Assembly (NCBI GenBank): GCA_005877815.1
Contig: VBOG01000028.1
Location: 4,803 to 68,802 of the forward strand
Direction: 5' to 3'
Origin: Nitrospirota bacterium
Lineage (GTDB): Bacteria; Nitrospirota; Nitrospiria; Nitrospirales; NS-4
DNA: 64,000 nt
Shown: positions 1,922-63,616 of the stretch, one piece after another
Layout of the letters: every line of letters starts with the position of its first letter
Position numbering within the stretch: position 1 is the stretch's first letter
Position numbers and translations under genes: made by a program
Notes under the pieces: model-generated
Told to the model about the DNA's origin: nothing
The model's database searches: none
The model's input: the letters and a program-made list of their open reading frames with translations, nothing else

Positions 1922-3718
1922 TTGATAGTCGGAGTCGGGCATTGCTACAATGATGCACGTGCAGACCACTTCGGAGAAGACACATTGGAAATCCCTGCGG
2001 CGCTCATCAAGACCTTCAACACGGCGCTGAACGAGATGAGCGCCGATCTGTCGTTGATCGCGCTGAAGGAAGACGGTTTCGGCCTCTTTCAGGCTCACGC
2101 TTATCGCGGATTTTCTCCTCGCGAAACGCAAGCCATCCTCCGGGCGCTCTCCTATCCCGAAATCGGGCTTGATGCGCGGGCTCATGAAGAAAACGGCGCC
2201 CCGAAGGTCCGCATCCGCATGACGGCCCCCGCTCACCGTTCGCTCCTCGGCACACCGCTTCGCGTCAATCAACGCGTCTGCGGAGCGCTGGTCATTGGAC
2301 GGAAGGATGTGGCGGCCTTCAGCGAACGAGATCGGCGGCAACTGGAGGAGACGAAAGAAGAGCTGGAAACGGCCATTGCAAAAGCCGATATCCTGCCGAC
2401 TCTCCCCACCTCGGCGCCGGTCTCCGAAGGTCGACAACTCCTGCCGCACGCGGCGTTGACGGAGATGGACAACCCGGCGATTGAGTCCCTCATGGCCGAT
2501 ATTCGCAATCAAATTCCCTATGACCGGGCGCTCCTTACCCGGTACGACCCAGAGAGTCAGCTGTTGACCGGTTTTATGTCGTGCGCGCCCGGGCACATCG
2601 AATGGCGTCATGGACAGACCTATACCCTCGATGCGTCCGCCGCCGGGTGGGTGCTGAGGCATATGAAGCCCCGGCTGGATCGGGACCTGGCGTCCACCCA
2701 AGGACGATTCCTGGATTATAAGGAACTATACAAGGATAAGTTCAAAACAGCCCTGGTGCTGCCGCTCCGGAGGGGAGCGGACATCATCGGCACCATCGCA
2801 TTGTCCTCACGCACGCCGAACTTATACAACATGGATATGCAGCGCGCCGCCGCCGGACGTCTCGAACAGCTCGCCAAAATGCTTCCTTCGATGGGCCCCC
2901 CATCGGGCGTGACGCCATCCGCCGCGCCTGCCACGATCGCGGATTCGACGGATGCGTTCGAAGCGCGTGAGATCATGTTGCGCCAGGAGCGGCAAGCGGC
3001 CATCCGGGAACTGACGGCGTTTCTCGAGCAGGACATCCAGCGGACGCTGACGAAAACACGGATGGAGCTTGAGGAGACACTCACCGACACCGCGTCGGGC
3101 GAAACATTGACCGTCGGAGGCATGGAACGCATCGAGCAGGCGTGCCGTGAGCTGACCGGTATTGAGGCCATCCTCAATGAAATTCTCGATCATGCCAAAC
3201 CCCTTGAACTCCACCCCCGCGTGGTTCGCATTCCAGACGTCATCGACAGCGCTCTCGCGGTGATCGCCAATGACATCGAGCCTCGACGCATCAAAGTCAC
3301 GCGGCAGTTCCCGGAGGACCTGCCGGCGATCAGGGCGGATGAAGGCAAGCTGCAGCAAGTTTTTCTCAGCATTCTGAAAAACGCCCTTGAGGCCATGTCG
3401 CCGGAGGGACACATTCATATTGAAGCGCTTCCCCATAAGGGCGCGCGCGGCCGGCATGAAGTGGCGCTGACGATCCAGAACGACGGCGCCCCGATCCCGA
3501 CCGAACATATCGGAAAGATCTTCGAACCGGGCTTTACGACGAAGGCCGCCGGCACGGGGCTCGGGCTCTCCTCGGTGAAAAAAATCATCGAAGAACACCG
3601 GGGGCAGATTTCAATTGCCAGCGGTCCAGGTCAAGGGACCGCCGTGATCATTCGCCTGCCGGCACATGCAGCCGCCCGCCACCCCGGACGAGGACGGCGG
3701 CGCCCACGAAGACGCTAG
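1922..3718 (+). CDS. cytoplasmic GAF-domain sensor histidine-kinase-like protein (intact HATPase_c, atypical H-box)
   Basis: The C-terminal N-box ILKNALEAM, G1 NDGAPIP, F-box FEPGFTTK and G2 GTGLGLS are all present. The ORF-track start 1658 overlaps the PCD gene, so I prefer TTG 1922 (AAGGAG at 1912-1917) or ATG 2036. Confidence 0.8.
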   Translation: MIVGVGHCYNDARADHFGEDTLEIPAALIKTFNTALNEMSADLSLIALKEDGFGLFQAHAYRGFSPRETQAILRALSYPEIGLDARAHEENGAPKVRIRMTAPAHRSLLGTPLRVNQRVCGALVIGRKDVAAFSERDRRQLEETKEELETAIAKADILPTLPTSAPVSEGRQLLPHAALTEMDNPAIESLMADIRNQIPYDRALLTRYDPESQLLTGFMSCAPGHIEWRHGQTYTLDASAAGWVLRHMKPRLDRDLASTQGRFLDYKELYKDKFKTALVLPLRRGADIIGTIALSSRTPNLYNMDMQRAAAGRLEQLAKMLPSMGPPSGVTPSAAPATIADSTDAFEAREIMLRQERQAAIRELTAFLEQDIQRTLTKTRMELEETLTDTASGETLTVGGMERIEQACRELTGIEAILNEILDHAKPLELHPRVVRIPDVIDSALAVIANDIEPRRIKVTRQFPEDLPAIRADEGKLQQVFLSILKNALEAMSPEGHIHIEALPHKGARGRHEVALTIQNDGAPIPTEHIGKIFEPGFTTKAAGTGLGLSSVKKIIEEHRGQISIASGPGQGTAVIIRLPAHAAARHPGRGRRRPRRR

Positions 3719-3775: not shown

Positions 3776-3847
3776 CTGGTCCGTTTTCGAGTCCCCAGGA
3801 ATTCAGTATTTGAAAGCATTAGATCCTCTTTCATTAGGAGGTTTCAT

Positions 3848-4186
3848 ATGAAACGTGCCATGTTTGTTTTTGCATTAGTTTCAGGTTTTTTGTTTATGTC
3901 GGCTGCTGCCTTCGCCAATCCGGCCCTGCTGAAAAAGCATGACGGCTACCCGGATGAGACGAAGAAGGCAACCACGTCGGTTGGTGACGCAGCCGGCTTG
4001 AAAGGCGCGGAGGATGCCCCCAAGGTCCTGAAGGAACAACTCAAGTCTGCCGATTACGGCGACCGTGCCGGCAATGCCTTCAGCGACGATCCTCGGCAGC
4101 GCAAGCACCCGGGCTATCCGGAAGGCGGTGTGACCGAAAGCCACATCAAGAACGCCACCAAAGTCAACGCCGCTCCGAAGAAGTAA
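3848..4186 (+). CDS. small secreted protein with two KHxGYP(D/E) motifs
   Basis: AGGAGG lies 7 nt upstream of ATG 3848. Signal peptide is MKRAMFVFALVSGFLFMSAAAFA. The repeated motifs are KKHDGYPDE and RKHPGYPEG. No family recognised. Confidence 0.6.
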   Translation: MKRAMFVFALVSGFLFMSAAAFANPALLKKHDGYPDETKKATTSVGDAAGLKGAEDAPKVLKEQLKSADYGDRAGNAFSDDPRQRKHPGYPEGGVTESHIKNATKVNAAPKK

Positions 4187-4207
4187 ACGCAGCGGCGAGT
4201 GATCAAA

Positions 4208-4245
4208 GGGGGGAAGGTCCGATAGGGCCTTCCCCCCTTTTTTTT
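4208..4245 (+). terminator. rho-independent terminator
   Basis: 13-bp GC-rich stem GGGGGGAAGGTCC / GGGCCTTCCCCCC with loop GATA, followed by T8. Confidence 0.8.
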
Positions 4246-4276
4246 GACGGCATCGACCACGGGAGCAGGCCGCCGC

Positions 4277-5506
4277 ATGGGTCTCATTCTTCGCGCCTTC
4301 ACGACATGGCGGATGGCCGTCATCCTGTTACTGGGATTTTCTTCCGGGATCCCGCTCGCACTGACAGGCACAACGCTCCAGGCCTGGATGAAATCGGAAG
4401 GCGCCGATCTCACGGTCATCGGACTGTTCTCGCTGGTGGGGCTGCCGTACGTTTTGAAGTTCCTCTGGGCGCCGTTGATGGATCGCTATATCCCGCCGTT
4501 TCTGGGACGCCGGCTCGGATGGATTCTGCTCTCGCAGGTGGCGCTGGTCGTCGCCATTATCGCAATGGCTTTCACCAGCCCTGTGGCACTGCCGGTCGCC
4601 GCGGCCGTCATCGCCGTCTTGATCTCGTTTTTCAGCGCGAGCCAGGACATCGTCGTGGACGCCTATCGGACGGACCTGGCGGAAACAGATGAGGTCGGTC
4701 CCGCCGCCTCGCTGTATATCGCGGGATATCGGATCGCGTTGTTGGTGTCGGGAGCGTTGGCGCTGATCCTCGCCGATCACCTGCCGTGGCGCACCGTGTA
4801 TCTCTTGATGGCGGCGACGATGACCATCGGCATCCTCGCCACATTGTTCGCGCCCGAACCGAAAACGCCCGGCACCCCTCCGCAAAGCATCGCTGAAGCC
4901 GTGATGCTGCCGTTCATGGAATATTTCCACCGGAAAGGCGCGCTGGAAATCCTGGCCTTCATCGTCCTGTACAAGATTGATGTCGTGATTGCGATGGCGA
5001 TGACAACTCCATTCCTGCTGGAGATCGGCTTCAGTAAAACGGATATCGGCGCCGTCACAAAGGGCTTTGGGTTGATCGCCACTCTGCTTGGCACGCTCAC
5101 GGGCGGCGCACTGATGGTCAGGCTCGGGATGAAGCGCTCGCTGTGGGTCTTCGGCTTGAGTCAGGGGATTTCCGGTCTCTCGTTCACGGCGCTGGCGCAT
5201 GTCGGCCATCACTATCCCATGTTGGTCGCGGCCATCGCCGCCGAAAATTTCTGTAGCGGCATGGGCACCGCGGCGTTCACCGCCTTTCTCATGACGCTCT
5301 GCGACAAACGGTTCTCCGCCACCCAATACGCGCTGCTCACCAGCATGATGGGGCTCAGCCGGGTGGTCGGCGGCGCGCCGACCGGCTATCTCGCCAAAGC
5401 GGTGGGCTGGGAACTCTATTTCTTCATCAGCGTTCTGGCCATGATCCCCGGCCTATTGTTGCTCAGCCGCTATTCCAAATGGTCGCTCCCCGAGCCAGTC
5501 AAATAG
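4277..5506 (+). CDS. ampG: AmpG-family muropeptide/MFS permease
   Basis: Multi-pass membrane protein. The N-terminus LLGFSSGIPLALTGTTLQAWM...LKFLWAPLMDRY is typical of AmpG. ATG 4277 is preferred over the alternative start at 4244, which lies in the terminator T-tract. Confidence 0.8.
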   Translation: MGLILRAFTTWRMAVILLLGFSSGIPLALTGTTLQAWMKSEGADLTVIGLFSLVGLPYVLKFLWAPLMDRYIPPFLGRRLGWILLSQVALVVAIIAMAFTSPVALPVAAAVIAVLISFFSASQDIVVDAYRTDLAETDEVGPAASLYIAGYRIALLVSGALALILADHLPWRTVYLLMAATMTIGILATLFAPEPKTPGTPPQSIAEAVMLPFMEYFHRKGALEILAFIVLYKIDVVIAMAMTTPFLLEIGFSKTDIGAVTKGFGLIATLLGTLTGGALMVRLGMKRSLWVFGLSQGISGLSFTALAHVGHHYPMLVAAIAAENFCSGMGTAAFTAFLMTLCDKRFSATQYALLTSMMGLSRVVGGAPTGYLAKAVGWELYFFISVLAMIPGLLLLSRYSKWSLPEPVK

Positions 5507-6353: not shown

Positions 6354-6847
6354 CATTCCGTCGCCCGCCCACCGATCATGACTTCTTCCAGTTTTTTGGT
6401 AAAGACGAGAAAGGACAGGCCATGCATTTTGACATCGGCGGGAACCAGTATCGGAACGCCTCCAACTCGATCGAGATCGACGGGATGGGGCACTTGTTGT
6501 TCGAGCACAACCGGCGCTACAACGACATGACGCTCAGGGGCATGCTCTTCGACCGAAACGGAAATCTCGTGGCTCGGATCTCGGAGAGCAGTCTGGCGTT
6601 GAACCTGCAGGGCGAATTCGACATCGACGTGGAAGCCTCGGTCGTACGCGTCGTCAGGCGCGAGAGCCGCGACATTTTGCTTGAAATCAAATTTCTCGAC
6701 AAGGAACACGTGCAGATCCACAAGGCGAAGCTCTACACCGGCAAAGGCCATCTCCTGGAGATCACGCCGACCTCATGGACGCTGGGGCACGACTCGCACA
6801 GCGGCGAGATCAAAGACTGTGTCGGCGAACCCGTGAGGCTATCGTGA
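6350..6847 (+). CDS. hypothetical 165-aa protein (or 141 aa from ATG 6422)
   Basis: TTG 6350 overlaps the upstream stop (TTGA). The sequence looks beta-rich. No family recognised. Confidence 0.5.
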   Translation: MTFRRPPTDHDFFQFFGKDEKGQAMHFDIGGNQYRNASNSIEIDGMGHLLFEHNRRYNDMTLRGMLFDRNGNLVARISESSLALNLQGEFDIDVEASVVRVVRRESRDILLEIKFLDKEHVQIHKAKLYTGKGHLLEITPTSWTLGHDSHSGEIKDCVGEPVRLS

Positions 6848-6849
6848 CC

Positions 6850-7674
6850 CTATTGAGCAGATTGCGCGCAGCGGAAGCCGATAAAGGCGTTGCGCGTGTC
6901 CGGCGGGACTTTCGTCGTACGGCTCGCCGAGAGCAGGTAGACCGGCATATCGGACCATGACCCTCCGCGAGTCATCTTGTACTGCCCGCGCGCCGGCCCG
7001 GGAGGATTTCGCGGAGGGCTGTCGGCATAGTACGAGCCGTCATACCAGTCCTGCACCCACTCGGCCACATTGCCAGCAAGATTGAAAGCACCGTACGGGC
7101 CCTGTCCCGTCGGATAGCTTTCCACCGACTTCAGCAAATCATACGAGAACCGCGTCATCTGCCCGAACAAGGCGAGCGACGGCTGCGGCCGTGTGTCGCC
7201 CCATGGAAATTTCTGTTCATTGCTATCCCGCGCGGCTTTTTCCCACTCAGCCTCCGTCGGCAATCGGCGCCCCGAGATTCGGCAATATGCATCGGCATCG
7301 CTCCAACTCACTCCGATGACCGGGCGATCGGCATGCTCGGGAAATTTGACGACATCCCAATTGACCGGCTTCTCCCAGCCCGTGGCGCCTAAGAACTTCG
7401 CGTAGCGGGCCGTCGTCACTTCGTATTTATCAATGTAAAAGGCATTGAGAAAGACCTGGTGGCGAGGCTGTTCATCGTCCAGCCCCTCGCCCTCCGGCAA
7501 CCCCATCCAAAAATCCCCCGCGGGCACAAGCACCATCGGGGCACCGTCCTTCCCTGTGATTTCTTTTGGGAGTGCGGGGCCGTCGGCGCCAAGACCGTCG
7601 GGGACCCGCACCGAGAGCAGCAAGAATCCGAGAATAACGAGTAGCGGCATCACCATTCGCCAACAGAAAGCCAA
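6850..7674 (-). CDS. secreted formylglycine-generating-enzyme (SUMF1/FGE-sulfatase) domain protein
   Basis: Signal peptide plus the family-typical segments RHQVFLNAFYIDKYEVT, GVSWSDADAYC, RLPTEAEWEKAAR, NVAEWVQDWY, RGGSW and GFRCA. Confidence 0.8.
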   Translation of the reverse strand: MAFCWRMVMPLLVILGFLLLSVRVPDGLGADGPALPKEITGKDGAPMVLVPAGDFWMGLPEGEGLDDEQPRHQVFLNAFYIDKYEVTTARYAKFLGATGWEKPVNWDVVKFPEHADRPVIGVSWSDADAYCRISGRRLPTEAEWEKAARDSNEQKFPWGDTRPQPSLALFGQMTRFSYDLLKSVESYPTGQGPYGAFNLAGNVAEWVQDWYDGSYYADSPPRNPPGPARGQYKMTRGGSWSDMPVYLLSASRTTKVPPDTRNAFIGFRCAQSAQ

Positions 7675-25555: not shown

Positions 25556-26545
25556 ATGAACTACCGGACACTCAGTGAAAAATCGATCGCGGGCGAAGCG
25601 CTCTCCCGTCCCGAAGCTCGCGCGGTGCTGGCCACTCCCGACGAAGCGCTTCTCGCATTGCTGGATGCCGCATTTCAAGTGCGACGGAAGTTCTTCGGAC
25701 GCAAGGTCCGGTTGCAGATGCTGCAAAACGCCAAGAGCGGCGCCTGCCAGGAAGATTGCGGCTACTGCTCCCAATCGGCGGTCTCCACGGCCGACATTTC
25801 TCAGTACGGGCTCCTGTCAAAAACCGAAATGGTCGCGGGCGCGAAGCAGGCCGCGGCATCCAAGGCCGTGCGCTACTGCATCGTGATCAGCGGGCGGGCA
25901 CCCCTCGAACGCGAGATTACCGCCATCAGCGAGGCAGTGCGTGACATTAAGCACGACGTGCCCGTCCAGGTGTGCTGCTCGCTGGGGCTCTTGACGGAAG
26001 AACACGCCGCCCGACTGAAGCAAGCCGGCGTGGATCGCATCAACCACAACCTGAACAGCTCAGAACGCTTTCATCCTGACATCGTCAGCACGCATACCTA
26101 TGAGGACCGGCTCTCCACGATCCGGAACGCGCGGGCCGTCGGCCTTGAAATCTGTTCGGGCGGCATCGCGGGCATGGGGGAAACGGATGAGGACGTGATC
26201 GACCTGGCATTTGCGTTGCGCGACGTACGGCCGGATTCGATCCCGATGAATTTTCTTCATCCGGTCGACGGCACGCCGATGCAGGGCCGGAAACATCTGA
26301 CGCCGCACAAATGCCTGAAGATCCTTTGCCTGTTCCGGTTCCTTCACCCAAAAACAGAACTGCGTGTCGCCGGCGGCCGCGAGTTCAACCTGCGCTCGAT
26401 GCAGGCTCTGGCGCTCTACCCTGCCGACTCGCTCTTCGTCGGCGGATACCTCACCACGCCGGGGATGCCGGCGGCGGAAGCCTGGAAGATGATCGAAGAC
26501 CTGGGCTTCGAGGTGGATGCCATCGGCGCGCCGGTCACAACTTAA
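25556..26545 (+). CDS. bioB: biotin synthase
   Basis: Radical SAM motif CQEDCGYCSQ in a BioB-like protein of 329 aa. Confidence 0.9.
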   Translation: MNYRTLSEKSIAGEALSRPEARAVLATPDEALLALLDAAFQVRRKFFGRKVRLQMLQNAKSGACQEDCGYCSQSAVSTADISQYGLLSKTEMVAGAKQAAASKAVRYCIVISGRAPLEREITAISEAVRDIKHDVPVQVCCSLGLLTEEHAARLKQAGVDRINHNLNSSERFHPDIVSTHTYEDRLSTIRNARAVGLEICSGGIAGMGETDEDVIDLAFALRDVRPDSIPMNFLHPVDGTPMQGRKHLTPHKCLKILCLFRFLHPKTELRVAGGREFNLRSMQALALYPADSLFVGGYLTTPGMPAAEAWKMIEDLGFEVDAIGAPVTT

Positions 26546-26580
26546 CCTTACGCGAGGCATGCCGTCGAGTCACCGAGGGT

Positions 26581-26725
26581 ACCCGTTGCTCTTTGCGCGG
26601 GTCCTGTCGGCGCATCACCCGAACGTGCTCAGGCCCTTTCGCCTTCGAGGCCCCGCAGATCAGGCTGTAGTGCCCTCCGCTCCGCTCGGGTCCCATGCGG
26701 CGCCACCCGCACGATTGCAACGGGT
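26581..26725 (+). repeat. 145-nt long-hairpin repeat, copy 1 (full core)
   Basis: Aligns without gaps to the reverse complement of 61758-61902, with 24 mismatches in 145 nt by my hand count. Terminal inverted repeats are ACCCGTTGC and GCAACGGGT. Confidence 0.85.
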
Positions 26726-26744
26726 CGTGTCGTTACGCTATCGC

Positions 26745-26824
26745 GGCCGTCGAAGATCCGGCTCCACGACCCTGCGCTCCGCCCGGGTCCCACTCGACGT
26801 CACCCGCGCCATTTCAACATCTGC
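26745..26824 (+). repeat. degenerate partial direct copy of the right half of the hairpin repeat
   Basis: GCCGTCGAAG...CGCTCCGCCCGGGTCCCA...CACCCGCGCCATTTCAAC parallels 26642-26725. Confidence 0.55.
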
Positions 26825-26859: not shown

Positions 26860-27010
26860 GGGAACGGGTGGCGCGTAGCTGGGCTCATTGCACCCAACCA
26901 CCCCTCGCCGGCCAAGACTGGCTTTTGTCCCGTGGCCATCGCCCGCCGCCGCATTCGCGAAGCGGCCTGGGATAGCACGGCGGGATGCTGAGCTGACAGG
27001 ACCCGTTCCC
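26860..27010 (+). repeat. 151-bp segment sharing both termini with the 61677-61931 element
   Basis: The left end GGGAACGGGTGGCGCGTAGC is identical over 20 nt to 61677-61696. The right end GCTGAGCTGACAGGACCCGTTCCC is nearly identical to 61909-61931. The ends are inverted repeats (GGGAACGGGT / ACCCGTTCCC). The interior is unrelated. Confidence 0.7.
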
Positions 27011-29168: not shown

Positions 29169-29816
29169 TCATTTATTGCGCACGTAATAGAGTTCCAAGG
29201 CGTCGCGGTAGCCCGCGACGCGCCCCTCTTCCCAGGCGTGCTCCAGCCGGCGCTTGAGACGTTCCACATCATGGTCACGCTTAGAATCGGCGGCATTCTG
29301 TCTGAGCAGGTTGAAGAGCGCAACGTGGATGATCTTGCTTCGACGAACTTCCATGTCTTCGCTGATCCAGGAGGCAAATGCGTCAGGGGCATGGTCCATC
29401 ACGATCTGGGGCTTCCAGGCGTCATACCCGAGTTTTTCCTTGATGATCTTTCGGACCGTCTCAATCTCTTCTCGTAGTTTCTTGATATCGTTCAGCAAGT
29501 ACCCGCGAATGTCGTCGTGCCCGGCCTCATAGAGCTTCTCGAGCATCTGGGCGACATAGATCTCCGGGTTGACAGGCTTCTCCTTGAACCCATACGTACC
29601 GTGTGACCCGAACCGCAGCCGGTCATATTCTTCCTTCGCCCCCGCATCGCCGACGACTCCATACGCTTCGCTGGCTTCCTTGAAACGGGCCTCCGCCTTC
29701 TTGTCCCCCGGGTGATGATCCGGGTGATTCTCCTTGGCGAGCTTCCGGAAGGCGGCCTTGATTGCCGCCGCCGTTGCGTCCTTCTCGACCTCGAGAACCT
29801 TGTAATAATCCTTCAT
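29169..29816 (-). CDS. J-domain (DnaJ-like) protein with unknown C-terminal domain
   Basis: [10 protein letters not shown]...[17 protein letters not shown] contains the HPD motif. It has no Gly/Phe or zinc-finger region. The track start 29987 lies inside the repeat and is rejected. Confidence 0.8.
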
Positions 29817-29854: not shown

Positions 29855-29968
29855 GCGGGTGGCGCCGCATGGGACCGGGCGGAGCGGAAGAGCCTACAGC
29901 CGAGTGGACGGGGCTGCGACGGCGATTCGACCCGTCGCACGTCCGGGTCATGCGCCGACAGGACCCGC
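29855..29968 (-). repeat. hairpin repeat, copy 3 (truncated core, about 114 nt)
   Basis: GCGGGTGGCGCCGCATGGGACC...GACAGGACCCGC matches 61774-61887 on the same strand and the reverse complement of copy 1. It lacks the outermost ACCCGTTGC arms. Confidence 0.75.
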
Positions 29969-30011: not shown

Positions 30012-32063
30012 ATGAGTGAATATACGAATCGGCTGGTGCACGAAACCAGCCCCTACCTCCAACAGCACGCGCACAACCCGGTGGACTGGTATCCCTGGGG
30101 CGAGGAAGCGCTGTCACGGGCAAAGGCGGCAAACAAACCAATCCTGTTGTCCATCGGTTACTCCGCGTGCCATTGGTGCCATGTCATGGAGCGGGAATCG
30201 TTCGAGAATACGGACATCGCCAAGGTCATGAACGACCACTTCATCAACATCAAAGTGGATCGTGAAGAGCGCCCGGATCTTGACGACATCTATCAAAAAT
30301 CGGCGCAGGCGTTCATGCGCCGCGGCGGTGGATGGCCGCTGACGGTGTTTTTGACGCCGGCGCAGGAGCCGTTCTGGGGAGGCACCTACTTTCCCCCTGT
30401 GCCGCGTCATGGCTTGCCTGGCTTTACGGAGGTGTTGCTTGGAGTGGCCGACGCCTATCACAAGGAACAGGGGCAAGTGCAGGAGAACATCCAGCGGGTG
30501 AAAGCGGGACTGCGGCAGATCAGCTCCCCACGGCCTTCCGACGTCCCGCTGGCGATGGACCTTCTAGACGATGCGGTCCGGGACCTCAGCTCATTTTACG
30601 AGCCGGTCAACGGCGGGTTCGGAGATGCGCCGAAGTTCCCCACTTGTCCGCCGTTCCAGGTCCTGCTGCGCCAGTACCATCGCACCAAGGACCAGAAGAC
30701 CCTCGACATGGTCCTTCACTCGTTGTGGAAGATGGCGTCGGGCGGCATGTACGACCATATCGGCGGAGGTTTTCACCGGTACTCCACCGACAGCCAGTGG
30801 CTGGTCCCCCACTTTGAAAAGATGCTGTACGACAACGCGCAGCTCGTGCGCTTATATCTCGATGGCTGGCGGCTTTCTCGCGAGCTACGATTCAAACACG
30901 TCGTTGAGGAAACGGTGGAATACGTGCGACGCGAGATGATCCATCCCGATGGCGGCATCTATACCGCGCAGGACGCCGACAGCGAAGGGCACGAAGGCAA
31001 GCACTTCGTCTGGGACCCGTGGGAGGTCAAGGCAATTCTCGGCCAGAAAATTGGCGACGTCTTCTGCCGGGTCTACGACATCACCGAGCAGGGAAATTTC
31101 GAAGGCAAGAACATCCCCAATCTGATCCGCAGTAACGGGCGCATCGAAGCCGATGACCTTCCGGATGCCGGGCAGGCGATGGCTGCGGCGAGGCGCAAGC
31201 TGCTGGAAACACGGGAACGCCGGATCAAGCCGCTGCGGGATGACAAGATTCTGACAGGCTGGAACGGCCTGATGGTCTCCGGGCTCCTGGACGCATACCA
31301 GACATTCGGCGAGGCGGATTACCTGGCGATCGCCGAAAAAGCACTGGCCTTCCTGCTTGGGCGTGCGTATCGAAACGGGCGATTGTTCCGGACGGTGACG
31401 GAAGGACGAGGCCGCCTGAACGGCTACCTTGACGATTACGCATTTTTGTCGGCGGCCCTCCTCGACGCCTTCGAAACCACCTCGCGCCCGGCCTATCTTG
31501 AACGAGCCCGCGAGCTGACGGCCGTCATGCTGGAGCAGTTTTGGGATCCGCAGGACGGCGGTTGCTTCTTCACGGGAAAAGACCATGAGCCCCTGTTGCA
31601 GCGCATGAAGACGTGTGAAGATTCCGCAATTCCAAACGGCAATGCGGTGGCCGCCATGAATTTTCTCCGGCTCTTCTCATACACGGGCGAACAAATTTAC
31701 GCGGACCGCGCGGAGCAGACGTTTCGCCTGTTCAGAACGCAGATGGACCAAAATCCATTCGGAACCTCGTCATTACTATGCGCCCTCGATTTCTATCTCT
31801 CAAAGCCGAAGGAACTGGTCCTGGTCGGCTCGCGCCAAAAGCCGGACATGAAAGAACTGCTGGCGAAGATCCACGGACGCTACCTGCCGAACAAGACCCT
31901 CATCGTTGCGCAGGAGGACAACGACGCCGCGTTGATTCCCGTGGCGCGCGGCAAAATCGCGCTCGGGGGCAAAGCCACAGCCTATGTCTGCCACAACTTC
32001 ACCTGCTCGCAGCCAGTCACGAAGTGGTCTGATCTGGAAACATTGCTTGAGGCAATCACCTAA
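30012..32063 (+). CDS. thioredoxin-domain protein of the DUF255/YyaL type (N-terminal Trx-like domain plus alpha/alpha-toroid domain)
   Basis: [29 protein letters not shown]...[14 protein letters not shown] is the characteristic N-terminus. 683 aa. Confidence 0.85.
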
Positions 32064-35548: not shown

Positions 35549-35631
35549 CCACCTCTTCGCATCAATACCAACGCCCTGCACAACTCTCCTGCTTTGTCGC
35601 TGTTACAGATCGAAGTGAGAGGCGAGGTCGC

Positions 35632-46319: not shown

Positions 46320-46395
46320 TGGTGGAGGGTAGGGGATTTGAACCCCCGACCCCGACGTTGCGAACGTCGTGCTCTCCCAGCTGAGCTAACCCCCC
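46320..46395 (-). tRNA. tRNA-Ala (anticodon CGC), CCA encoded
   Basis: Cloverleaf folded by hand: acceptor GGGGGGT/ACCCTCC with G3:U70, D-arm GCTC/GAGC, anticodon stem CGACG/CGTCG with loop TTCGCAA, and T-arm GGGGG-TTCAAAT-CCCCT. Confidence 0.9.
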
Positions 46396-61676: not shown

Positions 61677-61931
61677 GGGAACGGGTGGCGCGTAGCGGGC
61701 GCCCTGAGCCCGGCGTGAGTAAGTCCGCGCGAGGCTTTGCGACGAACGACCGGATTGACCCGTTGCAGTCGCGCGGGTGGTGCCGCATGGGACCCAGGCG
61801 GAGCGGAGTAGCGTACAGCCGAGTCTGCGGGGCTTCGACGGCGAAACGCCGCGAGCACGTCTGGGTGATGCGGCGACACGACCCGCGCAAAGAGCAATGG
61901 GTTCCCCGGCTGAGCGACAGGACCCGTTCCC
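61677..61931 (-). repeat. hairpin repeat, copy 2 (145-nt core 61758-61902 nested in a 255-bp unit with GGGAACGGGT/ACCCGTTCCC termini)
   Basis: The core is about 83% identical to the reverse complement of 26581-26725. The outer termini are shared with 26860-27010. It occupies the potC-potD spacer. Confidence 0.85.
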
Positions 61932-61971: not shown

Positions 61972-62736
61972 TCATTTCCTCTGCACCCACGTCGCCACCG
62001 CCACCAGCCCCATCGAGATCACCACCAGCACCGCCGATAACGCATTCACCTCCGGCGTCACCGCCGTCTTCAGCATGCCATACACCTTGATCGGCAAAGT
62101 GGTCGAACCGACCCCGGCCAGAAAGAAGCTGATGATGAAGTCGTCCAGCGACAGCGTGAACGCCATGAGCAGCGCGCCGATGATGCCGGGCATGAGCAGC
62201 GGCAGCGTGACCCGTCGGAATGCGGTCCACGGCGTCGCGCCCAGGTCCAACGCGGCCTCTTCAAGCTGCGGGTCCAGCTTTCGCAGGCGCGCACGCACGA
62301 TCAGCGCCACGACCGGAAAGTTAAACATCGTGTGGGCAATGATGATCGTCACCAGCGAAAGCTTGACGCCGATCATGACGAAGAACAGCAGCATCGCCAC
62401 GCCCATCATGATCTCGGGGATAATGATCGGCAGCAGCAGCACGCCTTCACATGCATGAAGACCAGGGAATGCCTGGCGCTCCAAGGCCACGGCCGTCAGC
62501 ACGCCGAGCATGCCGGCGAGAATCGTCGACACCACGGCGACGATGAGGCTGTTCCAGGTTGACGATAACAACGCCTCATGGGTGAACAGCTTCGCATACC
62601 ACTGGAGCGAGAACCCCTGCCAGCGCGCGGAAAACTTTGACGCGTTGAATGAGAACACGATGAGGATCGCGATCGGGAGGTACAGGAACAGCAGGTCCGT
62701 GATGCTTGCCGCGACGATCCAATGACGGGTTTTCAT
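61972..62736 (-). CDS. potC: spermidine/putrescine ABC transporter permease PotC
   Basis: Six-TM permease with an EAA-loop-like LEEAALDLGATPWTAFRRVTLP. ATG 62736 is preferred (10 nt after the potB stop). Confidence 0.85.
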   Translation of the reverse strand: MKTRHWIVAASITDLLFLYLPIAILIVFSFNASKFSARWQGFSLQWYAKLFTHEALLSSTWNSLIVAVVSTILAGMLGVLTAVALERQAFPGLHACEGVLLLPIIIPEIMMGVAMLLFFVMIGVKLSLVTIIIAHTMFNFPVVALIVRARLRKLDPQLEEAALDLGATPWTAFRRVTLPLLMPGIIGALLMAFTLSLDDFIISFFLAGVGSTTLPIKVYGMLKTAVTPEVNALSAVLVVISMGLVAVATWVQRK

Positions 62737-62746
62737 GGTGTCTGGT

Positions 62747-63616
62747 TTACGCGAGATTTTTGGGGCCGCCTGCACGCAGATATGACATCACGGCCAGCAG
62801 CACGCCGACCATCAGGATGAAGGAGAGCGCCGACCCGAAGGGCCAGTCGCGGACCACCAGGTACTGATGTTGGATCAGATTCCCGATCATGAGCGTTCTC
62901 GCCCCCCCCAGGAGATCCGGAGTGACATACGCCCCGAGCGATGGAATGAAGACCAGGAGACAGCCCGCGATGATGCCCGGCTTGCTCAAAGGCAGAATGA
63001 TGCGCGTGAAAATTCTGACCGGGCTCGCGTAGAGATCCCACGCCGCCTCGATCAATGCAGGGTCGAGACGCTCGAGGGCCGCATACAGCGGCAAGACCAT
63101 GAACGGCAGATAGCCATAGACCAGCCCGAGCAGGACCGCACCGTCGGTGTAGAGCAGGTTCAGCGGTTGGTCAATGAGACCGGCGGAGATCAGCGCCGTA
63201 TTCAGCAACCCTTCGGTCCGCAGAATGAACATCCAGGCGTAGGTCCGCACCAGAAAGTTCGTCCAGAAGGGGATGATGACCAGCAGCAGCAGCGCGCCCT
63301 GCCAGCGTTTCGGGGCGCCCGCAATCGCATAGGCGAGCGGAAACCCGATCACAAGACAGATGGCGGAGCTGGCGACGGCGATCCAGAGCGACCGCCAGAA
63401 AATGCGCAGGTAGAGCGGATCGAGGATGCTCGTATAGTTCGAGACGGTCAGCGTCCATTCAATGCCGCCGTAGGTGCCGCGGGACGCGAAGCTGACGGCG
63501 AGGACCACGAGGAGCGGCATCAGGAAGAAGACCAGAAGGGCAGCGGCGGGCGGGACGATCAGCCAGGGAACGGTCAGTCGGCCTCGCGCGTTGAGAACGG
63601 AGTCAGCGGTCTTCAC
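62747..63616 (-). CDS. potB: spermidine/putrescine ABC transporter permease PotB
   Basis: Permease with EAA loop IEAAWDLYASPVRIFTRIILP. It overlaps potA by 4 nt. Confidence 0.85.
   Translation of the reverse strand: MKTADSVLNARGRLTVPWLIVPPAAALLVFFLMPLLVVLAVSFASRGTYGGIEWTLTVSNYTSILDPLYLRIFWRSLWIAVASSAICLVIGFPLAYAIAGAPKRWQGALLLLVIIPFWTNFLVRTYAWMFILRTEGLLNTALISAGLIDQPLNLLYTDGAVLLGLVYGYLPFMVLPLYAALERLDPALIEAAWDLYASPVRIFTRIILPLSKPGIIAGCLLVFIPSLGAYVTPDLLGGARTLMIGNLIQHQYLVVRDWPFGSALSFILMVGVLLAVMSYLRAGGPKNLA

Follow-up and report, generated by a model that had tools for sequence, protein, structure and literature searches.

ERIC elements (IRU) of the Enterobacteriaceae are reportedly imperfect palindromes of about 127 bp. 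Their longer variants arise by insertions at fixed internal sites, their hairpin is kept by paired changes, and no transposase is known to move them. They are reported to occur in transcribed regions, and most discussion of them concerns structure at the RNA level. The Correia elements (CREE/NEMIS) of Neisseria are intergenic repeats of 100-155 bp with inverted termini, often located beside genes. Internal deletions or insertions generate their length variants; they are flanked by a duplicated TA target and contain promoter, IHF and RNase III sites. The REP-like hairpins of E. coli affect mRNA decay, and elements of the IS200/IS605 group are said to move by replication-coupled single-strand transposition.

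REPINs, described in Pseudomonas fluorescens and other RAYT carriers, consist of two inverted REPs and a spacer, form hairpins and commonly carry compensatory changes (Bertels and Rainey 2011, PMC3116915). The REP/BIME repeats of E. coli, associated with TnpA-REP in the REPtron, are intergenic mosaics, mostly located after genes, in which palindromic units alternate in orientation; for them, a single-stranded DNA (ssDNA) HUH mechanism without target duplication has been proposed. The individual E. coli REPs are 29-37 nt long, are preceded by GTAG and are joined via fixed linker motifs (PMC8266576).

Here we analyze a repeat family present in a 64,000-nt stretch of Nitrospirota DNA, hereafter the window. 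We place at roughly 70% the probability that this is a lineage-specific, interspersed family of extragenic DNA palindromes of the REP/BIME/REPIN kind, which spread as ssDNA hairpins. Good evidence supports its nature as a mobile or amplifying DNA repeat. The initial annotation of the window saw no ORF in the element and no resemblance to any known ncRNA. The element indeed has no ORF, and Rfam, searched at gathering and permissive thresholds, gave no match to it and only a tRNA elsewhere in the window plus chance hits, but as a kind its anatomy is that of REP doublets (REPINs). The tRNA gene, at 46323-46395(-), is the window's only Rfam match at the gathering threshold and is unrelated to the repeat.

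Two of the copies had been aligned over 145 nt at about 83% identity with 24 mismatches, and our recomputation agrees: an ungapped 145-nt alignment of 26581-26725(+) with the reverse complement of 61758-61902 has 83.4% identity and 24 mismatches. A third copy exists, as proposed, at 29855-29968(-). Arm motifs of 22 nt and 24 nt occur three times each in the window, against about 0.01 occurrences expected from shuffles. The boundaries of the unit had to be redrawn. Iterated nhmmer searches combined with a covariance model delimit a palindromic repeat unit of 114 nt with sharp ends, GCGGGTCCTGTC...CCACCCGC (the 114-nt core was also delimited by this route as GCGGGTCCTGTCGCCGCAT...ATGCGGCGCCACCCGC), at window positions 26597-26710, 29855-29968 and 61773-61886. 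In the two copies of the 145-nt match, the 15-16 nt that flank the core to either side form the stem of a 28-nt mini-hairpin. Since the core has sharp ends and unrelated flanks at 108 distinct sites, the copy at 29855-29968, which had been called truncated, is the full-length canonical form.

The 145-nt match is thus a core lying inside the loop of a mini-hairpin, which itself lies inside a second family member. Core copy 1 (26597-26710, +), a full-length match to nhmmer and the covariance model at 120.9 bits, has the ends GCGGGT...ACCCGC. It separates the left half of the mini-hairpin (26581-26596, +), composed of ACCCGTTGC and the loop remnant TCTTTGC, from the right half (26711-26725, +), composed of ACGATT and GCAACGGGT. 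This stem is the host element's and not the core's: the same stem is found in 24 uninterrupted, or empty, mini-hairpins with a loop of 9-10 nt in related loci. All helices listed by the initial annotation are present, but the outermost one, ACCCGTTGC/GCAACGGGT, is part of the host element that encloses the nested core. The whole forms a 256-nt composite (26552-26807, +), in which a degenerate outer family member (26552-26580 and 26726-26807) is split by the mini-hairpin and the inner core. This composite aligns to composites in the related loci L026 (two), L010 and L019; its outer part aligns to the canonical core, with an nhmmer match at 26723-26807, and its outer arms pair in a DNA fold.

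Core copy 3 (61773-61886, -; 127.5 bits) also occupies a mini-hairpin loop, within a 255-nt composite (61677-61931, -) in the spacer between a permease gene and a solute-binding-protein gene. Here the outer element is of the GGGAACGGGT type (61903-61931 plus 61677-61757), and the mini-hairpin halves are at 61887-61902 and 61758-61772. The same 16-nt termini as in this outer element (GGGAACGGGTGGCGCG / GACAGGACCCGTTCCC) are found in a sister-subfamily member of 151 nt (26860-27010, -), which has the termini GGGAACGGGT...ACCCGTTCCC, has an arm matching the family arms and lies in the bioB intergenic region. The 486 nt of that region are largely occupied by family members. Core copy 2 (29855-29968, -; 93.2 bits) is a plain canonical core of 114 nt. 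The window therefore holds two three-level composites, one plain core and one further 151-nt element; both outer hosts and the 151-nt element had been overlooked. The host element around the mini-hairpin is the older family member, which gives three levels of nesting. In the 144-nt form of the element, a mini-hairpin of 27-28 nt, ACC(C/T)GTTGC-loop-GCAACGGGT, is present at a fixed position of the left arm. The inner cores found in mini-hairpin loops come from several different subfamilies, suggesting that the loop was struck repeatedly rather than copied once.

Relatives of the host genome had been named as a place to look for further copies, and the family proved to be present in many copies in Nitrospirales-type MAGs. 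Exact-match searches with arm motifs found it in 27 contigs of a genome collection (right arm), all from soil or groundwater MAGs, and in at least 120 metagenome contigs (left arm). The 27 contigs are labeled Nitrospirales, Nitrospirae or Nitrospiria, with one exception, labeled Desulfomonile. This exception, L011 (JACRDG010000013.1, labeled as a Desulfomonile tiedjei MAG), has a core element of the typical form; it is syntenic with L010 and L022 (Nitrospirae/Nitrospiria), with about 80% identity over more than 800 nt, and so was probably mis-binned. Within the 965 kb around about 170 copies, those outside ascertainment amount to about 33 per Mb, and the copy number extrapolates to the order of a hundred per genome.

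In each unit, a pair of conserved inverted arms (5'-GCGGGTCCTGTCGCCGCATCACCCGGACGTGC...GCTCCGCCCGGGTCCCATGCGGCGCCACCCGC-3'), each about 33 nt long, encloses a variable self-complementary interior, so that either DNA strand can fold as one long hairpin. The interiors are interchangeable modules, giving element lengths of 92-98, 111-116, 128, 144 and 189-198 nt with nearly constant arms. In the chimeric copies of L001, L006 and L009, the left arm belongs to the AGCCCA/TGGGCG subfamily and the right arm to the CACCCG/CGGGTC subfamily, which suggests recombination among family members; the left arm of these copies forms a local stem of its own (GCCCAGC-GCA-GCTGGGC). In L026, a TatD-family hydrolase gene is flanked by two similar 259-nt composites in the same orientation (2928-3186 and 4025-4283), which looks like a local duplication or two parallel insertions.

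This anatomy resembles that of REPINs in its conserved inverted arms and less conserved spacer, in the long hairpin predicted as ssDNA or RNA, and in the compensatory changes of the spacer. Other shared features are the extragenic location, the order of 100 copies per genome (here by extrapolation), singlets as decay products, and clusters and higher-order arrangements. Unlike in REPINs, no cognate RAYT was found in the 965 kb and there is no GTAG-type end motif; the unit is longer (114 nt), has several interior modules and is frequently nested in hairpin loops, and the host is a clade of uncultured Nitrospirales. With the E. coli REP/BIME repeats, the family shares mosaic palindromic units, alternating orientation, an intergenic location mostly after genes, and the kind of mechanism proposed; it differs in that its arms belong to one long covarying hairpin without GTAG. 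A distinct GTAGGGGC...GCCCCTAC family of the same genomes resembles the canonical E. coli REP type. The ERIC elements are alike in being imperfect palindromes with internal-insertion length variants, paired changes and no known transposase, and differ in that orientation here is independent of transcription; compared by description, the two show no apparent sequence similarity. The Correia elements are comparable in size, inverted termini, intergenic location, length variants and gene-adjacent copies, and differ in that no target duplication and no promoter or terminator consensus was found here.

The genomic contexts of the copies bear directly on whether the element acts as RNA. Pfam and gene calls on population contigs agree with the gene identities guessed initially and confirm that all three copies are intergenic. 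Copy 1 lies between a radical-SAM/BATS BioB gene (25556-26545, +) and a gene of 265 aa, in a convergent context. Copy 2 lies in the divergent spacer between a DnaJ-domain gene (29169-29816, -) and a DUF255/thioredoxin-like gene (+, start near 30016). Copy 3 is in tandem between two ABC permease genes (61972-62775 and 62747-63616, -) and a solute-binding-protein gene (from 60602, -). A structured ncRNA or a cis-acting mRNA element (stabilizer, processing site or attenuator) under RNA-level selection would be expected to keep a fixed sense. In favor of this possibility, each window copy can be read as sense to one neighboring gene, and many copies lie just 3' of stop codons. However, the common sense relative to transcription on which the initial annotation remarked carries no weight, as the three copies occupy convergent, divergent and tandem contexts. 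The same is seen across the family: among 64 classifiable sites, 17 are tandem sense and 10 tandem antisense, with 37 more that are convergent (26) or divergent (11), and gene direction does not correlate with element orientation (rho 0.09). All 108 sites lie outside the genes called with a simple GC3-based caller, which was checked on the window's Pfam-supported genes, and many are about 2-50 nt from a gene end. Consensus scans for promoters and terminators at the three window sites gave nothing above shuffles that involves the elements, and the elements lack a terminator-like T tract.

Site turnover also argues against an RNA function, since orthologous sites may be empty, flipped or replaced. 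Two gene junctions are empty in the window and filled in other MAGs: the junction at about 6832-6857 carries a core element in L001, L008, L009 and L021, and the one at approximately 35580-35615 carries a 116-nt element in L003. At one orthologous convergent junction we observed, depending on the genome, a 189-nt variant, a 114-nt variant, a reversed 115-nt copy or the unrelated GTAGGGGC...GCCCCTAC palindrome. The spacer holding copy 2 is also occupied in L015 (by a 95-nt variant) and in L020. Among the orthologous sites compared, a precise filled/empty junction could not be recovered because the intergenic flanks are too diverged. The bioB intergenic region shows no strain-level variation in five metagenome contigs from the same population, which are identical across it.

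At about 4480-4520 of L072, only GCGGGTCCTGTCGCCGCATCACCGGGGCACCCGC is left, a 34-nt remnant of what is a 144-nt element at the same site in L018 and L023. This is consistent with an in-situ deletion between short GGCACC direct repeats, and shows a route to REP-like singlets. Apparent insertions of 100-120 nt in L008 and L009 relative to L021 were rejected as candidates, since they reflect gaps within coding sequence and have nothing to do with the repeat. About 102 nt (near 2825) and about 123 nt (near 3900) of coding sequence that the close relatives L008 and L009 have are missing from L021, through either real deletions or assembly artefacts.

A further argument in favor of an RNA is covariation, which is indeed strong in every helix. 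In a MAFFT alignment of 29 copies, both sides change in 17 of 30 pairs, and none of 500 shuffles reaches the observed values. When 80 copies were aligned to the model, 94% of the cells were paired across the five helices, against 35-45% with partners slid; double-sided changes occurred in 20 of 30 pairs and in 220 cells, against 67 in shuffles. The 80-copy alignment was fitted to the model and so leans to structure, and the MAFFT result agrees with it. The innermost pairs ACCCGA/TCGGGT, ACCCAG/CTGGGT and ACCCGG/CC-GGT, singled out initially in the three window copies, are confirmed, and the position covaries family-wide (GC 23, UA 19, AU 12). In contrast, the change from C:G to A:T reported for AGAGCGGGT/ACCCGCTCT has to be discarded, as it compares non-homologous flanks and not homologous positions. 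The arms are more conserved than the spacer, and compensatory changes lie within the spacer.

The kind of change bears on which molecule folds. Few changes are one-sided (wobble), and many are GC-to-CG swaps. The 144 cells that are not Watson-Crick comprise 17 G.T, 38 A.C and 89 other mismatches, with no excess of wobble pairs, and the RNAalifold consensus energies of the two strands are practically equal (-28.63 vs -28.61 kcal/mol). Thus, selection or a templated process maintains Watson-Crick complementarity on both strands, as expected of a DNA palindrome and not of an RNA made from one strand. In each window copy, folding is somewhat better for the complement of the 5'-GCGGGTCCTGTC strand; this is not the strand enriched on the G-rich strand. 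The covariation is therefore real but of the DNA type: the initial proposal of selection on the fold stands as regards compensatory changes, which go well beyond shuffled and slid controls, and its lean toward RNA is unsupported. Taking together the shortage of G.T cells, the equal folding of both strands, the site turnover, the interchangeable interiors, the mixed gene contexts and the absence of an Rfam match or T tract, we consider it very unlikely that the family is an RNA element.

Element orientation appears to follow a replication proxy, GC skew, and not transcription (p about 0.01-0.02). Orientation was associated with local GC skew over all sites (Fisher p 5e-4) and with third-codon-position GC skew (rho 0.34, p 0.005). 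With orthologous sites merged into 43 clusters, 29 had the 5'-GCGGGTCCTGTC strand on the G-rich strand and 13 had it on the other (binomial p 0.02, Wilcoxon p 0.009), in a test that is post hoc and moderately significant, takes skew as a proxy for fork direction and relies on the simple gene caller. A cruder grouping of whole loci on the basis of any homology, which lumps 57 loci into 17 groups, removes the significance; we set it aside, site orthology being the appropriate unit. If the bias holds, it is what replication-coupled single-strand transposition of the IS200/IS605 sort would be expected to leave.

A different kind of mobility would be that of a classical MITE, a deletion derivative of an insertion sequence with a DDE transposase, mobilized in trans through its terminal inverted repeats. 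The family does have terminal inverted repeats, small size, noncoding sequence, an intergenic location and presence/absence polymorphism. It differs from a MITE in that its covarying hairpin spans the whole length and not the termini alone. Target-site duplication, one of the MITE hallmarks raised initially, was absent as well: for lengths of 2-6, direct repeats were as frequent as in shuffled pairings. Nor did the palindrome extend into the flanks more than in shuffled controls, and the flanks show only a mild preference, for [G/T][A/C] to the left and TC to the right. The 965 kb contained no longer element with the same termini that could be a parent insertion sequence, and a blastn search of a plasmid collection with the 257-nt composite gave no match. 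With no transposase found either, as described next, a MITE origin appears quite unlikely.

No RAYT/IS200-type gene or other transposase was found in the 965 kb around the roughly 170 copies. Searches of this sequence by tblastn with E. coli RayT (a query 99% identical to the database RayT) and with a putative IS608 TnpA sequence were negative, as were a profile HMM of 120 RayT proteins run against six-frame ORFs and a scan for HUH plus Y-x-x-N-P motifs. ORFs bracketed by two elements were considered as transposases and rejected, being ordinary genes (TatD, hydrolases, Tag glycosylase, an MBL-fold protein and a HAD protein). Neither GTAG, the tetranucleotide usually located 5' of RAYT-type REPs, nor CTAC is present at the element ends. 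The same Nitrospirales contigs carry a separate, canonical-looking GTAG-type REP family, GTAG-GGGC...GCCC-CTAC, of 28-58 nt, single or doublet, at L002 2158, L018 1038, L044 3010, L070 3390 and the L072 junction (near 3840-3900). The GTAG-type palindrome also makes up the interior module of the main family's 128-nt variant (L035, L061, L099 and L106), as its cargo. The presence of this family suggests that a GTAG-recognizing RAYT is encoded somewhere in these genomes.

Palindromes could also be kept without transposition. In that case, the element would be a structural DNA motif maintained by the host, such as a site for gyrase, a nucleoid protein or similar, spread and homogenized mainly by recombination or gene conversion, with its palindromy kept by templated repair within the hairpin. 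E. coli BIMEs bind gyrase and IHF (PMC8266576). At the copy-2 site in three genomes, the arms are far more conserved than the flanking genes (88-97% invariant vs 72-75% identical), and the chimeric copies with arms from different subfamilies would fit this reading too. Against it, sharp ends at more than 100 unrelated sites and insertion into the loops of other elements require insertion events, and the strand bias with GC skew is not predicted. We therefore regard a purely host-maintained motif as unlikely.

Our preferred reading remains a REPIN-like family spreading as ssDNA. We infer movement as ssDNA by a Y1/HUH enzyme from the absence of target duplication, the complementarity on two strands, the targeting of loops and the skew bias. 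In our model, the host would encode an HUH/Y1 enzyme of the RAYT or IS200/IS605 type that acts, at or near the replication fork, on hairpins of ssDNA, the form in which the non-autonomous copies would spread. This would explain both the Watson-Crick pairing on both strands and the orientation with respect to GC skew. Units are gained, lost, flipped and replaced at intergenic sites without target-site duplication, and often land in the apical loop of another hairpin, producing the nested composites of the window. Any effects on neighboring transcripts, for example 3'-end stabilization, would be secondary. Counting against this reading are the negative searches for RAYT or IS200-type genes in the 965 kb, the lack of GTAG at the ends, the failure to recover a precise filled/empty junction, the moderate significance of the post hoc skew association, and the slightly better folding of the strand that is not favored on the G-rich strand.

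We also entertain, as a possible though doubtful variant, that the family is a hairpin-loop-seeking, replication-strand-biased ssDNA element that uses no canonical GTAG-recognizing RAYT and depends on a hitherto undescribed nuclease, HUH or other, of soil Nitrospirales. Its nearly invariant arms have persisted in at least 10 species whose genes are about 70-75% identical. If the enzyme is indeed an undescribed one, the family would be a long-lived, vertically inherited replicator comparable to the REPIN-RAYT systems, with different recognition rules and interchangeable cargo modules.

A literature search for Nitrospira with REP, RAYT or MITE returned no description of the family or of such repeats in the phylum. 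What is new under the preferred REPIN-like reading is a well-delimited family from an uncultured soil Nitrospirales clade; compensatory changes were already known for REPINs. For genome scans, the lesson is that strong covariation alone is not enough to identify a repeat family as RNA, and that wobble asymmetry, orientation relative to genes and site turnover tell a DNA palindrome from an RNA. For MAGs of this clade, the repeats are a probable cause of fragmented assemblies and a potential lineage marker. In the search for the enzyme that mobilizes the family, both the nested composites and the GC-skew bias provide handles.
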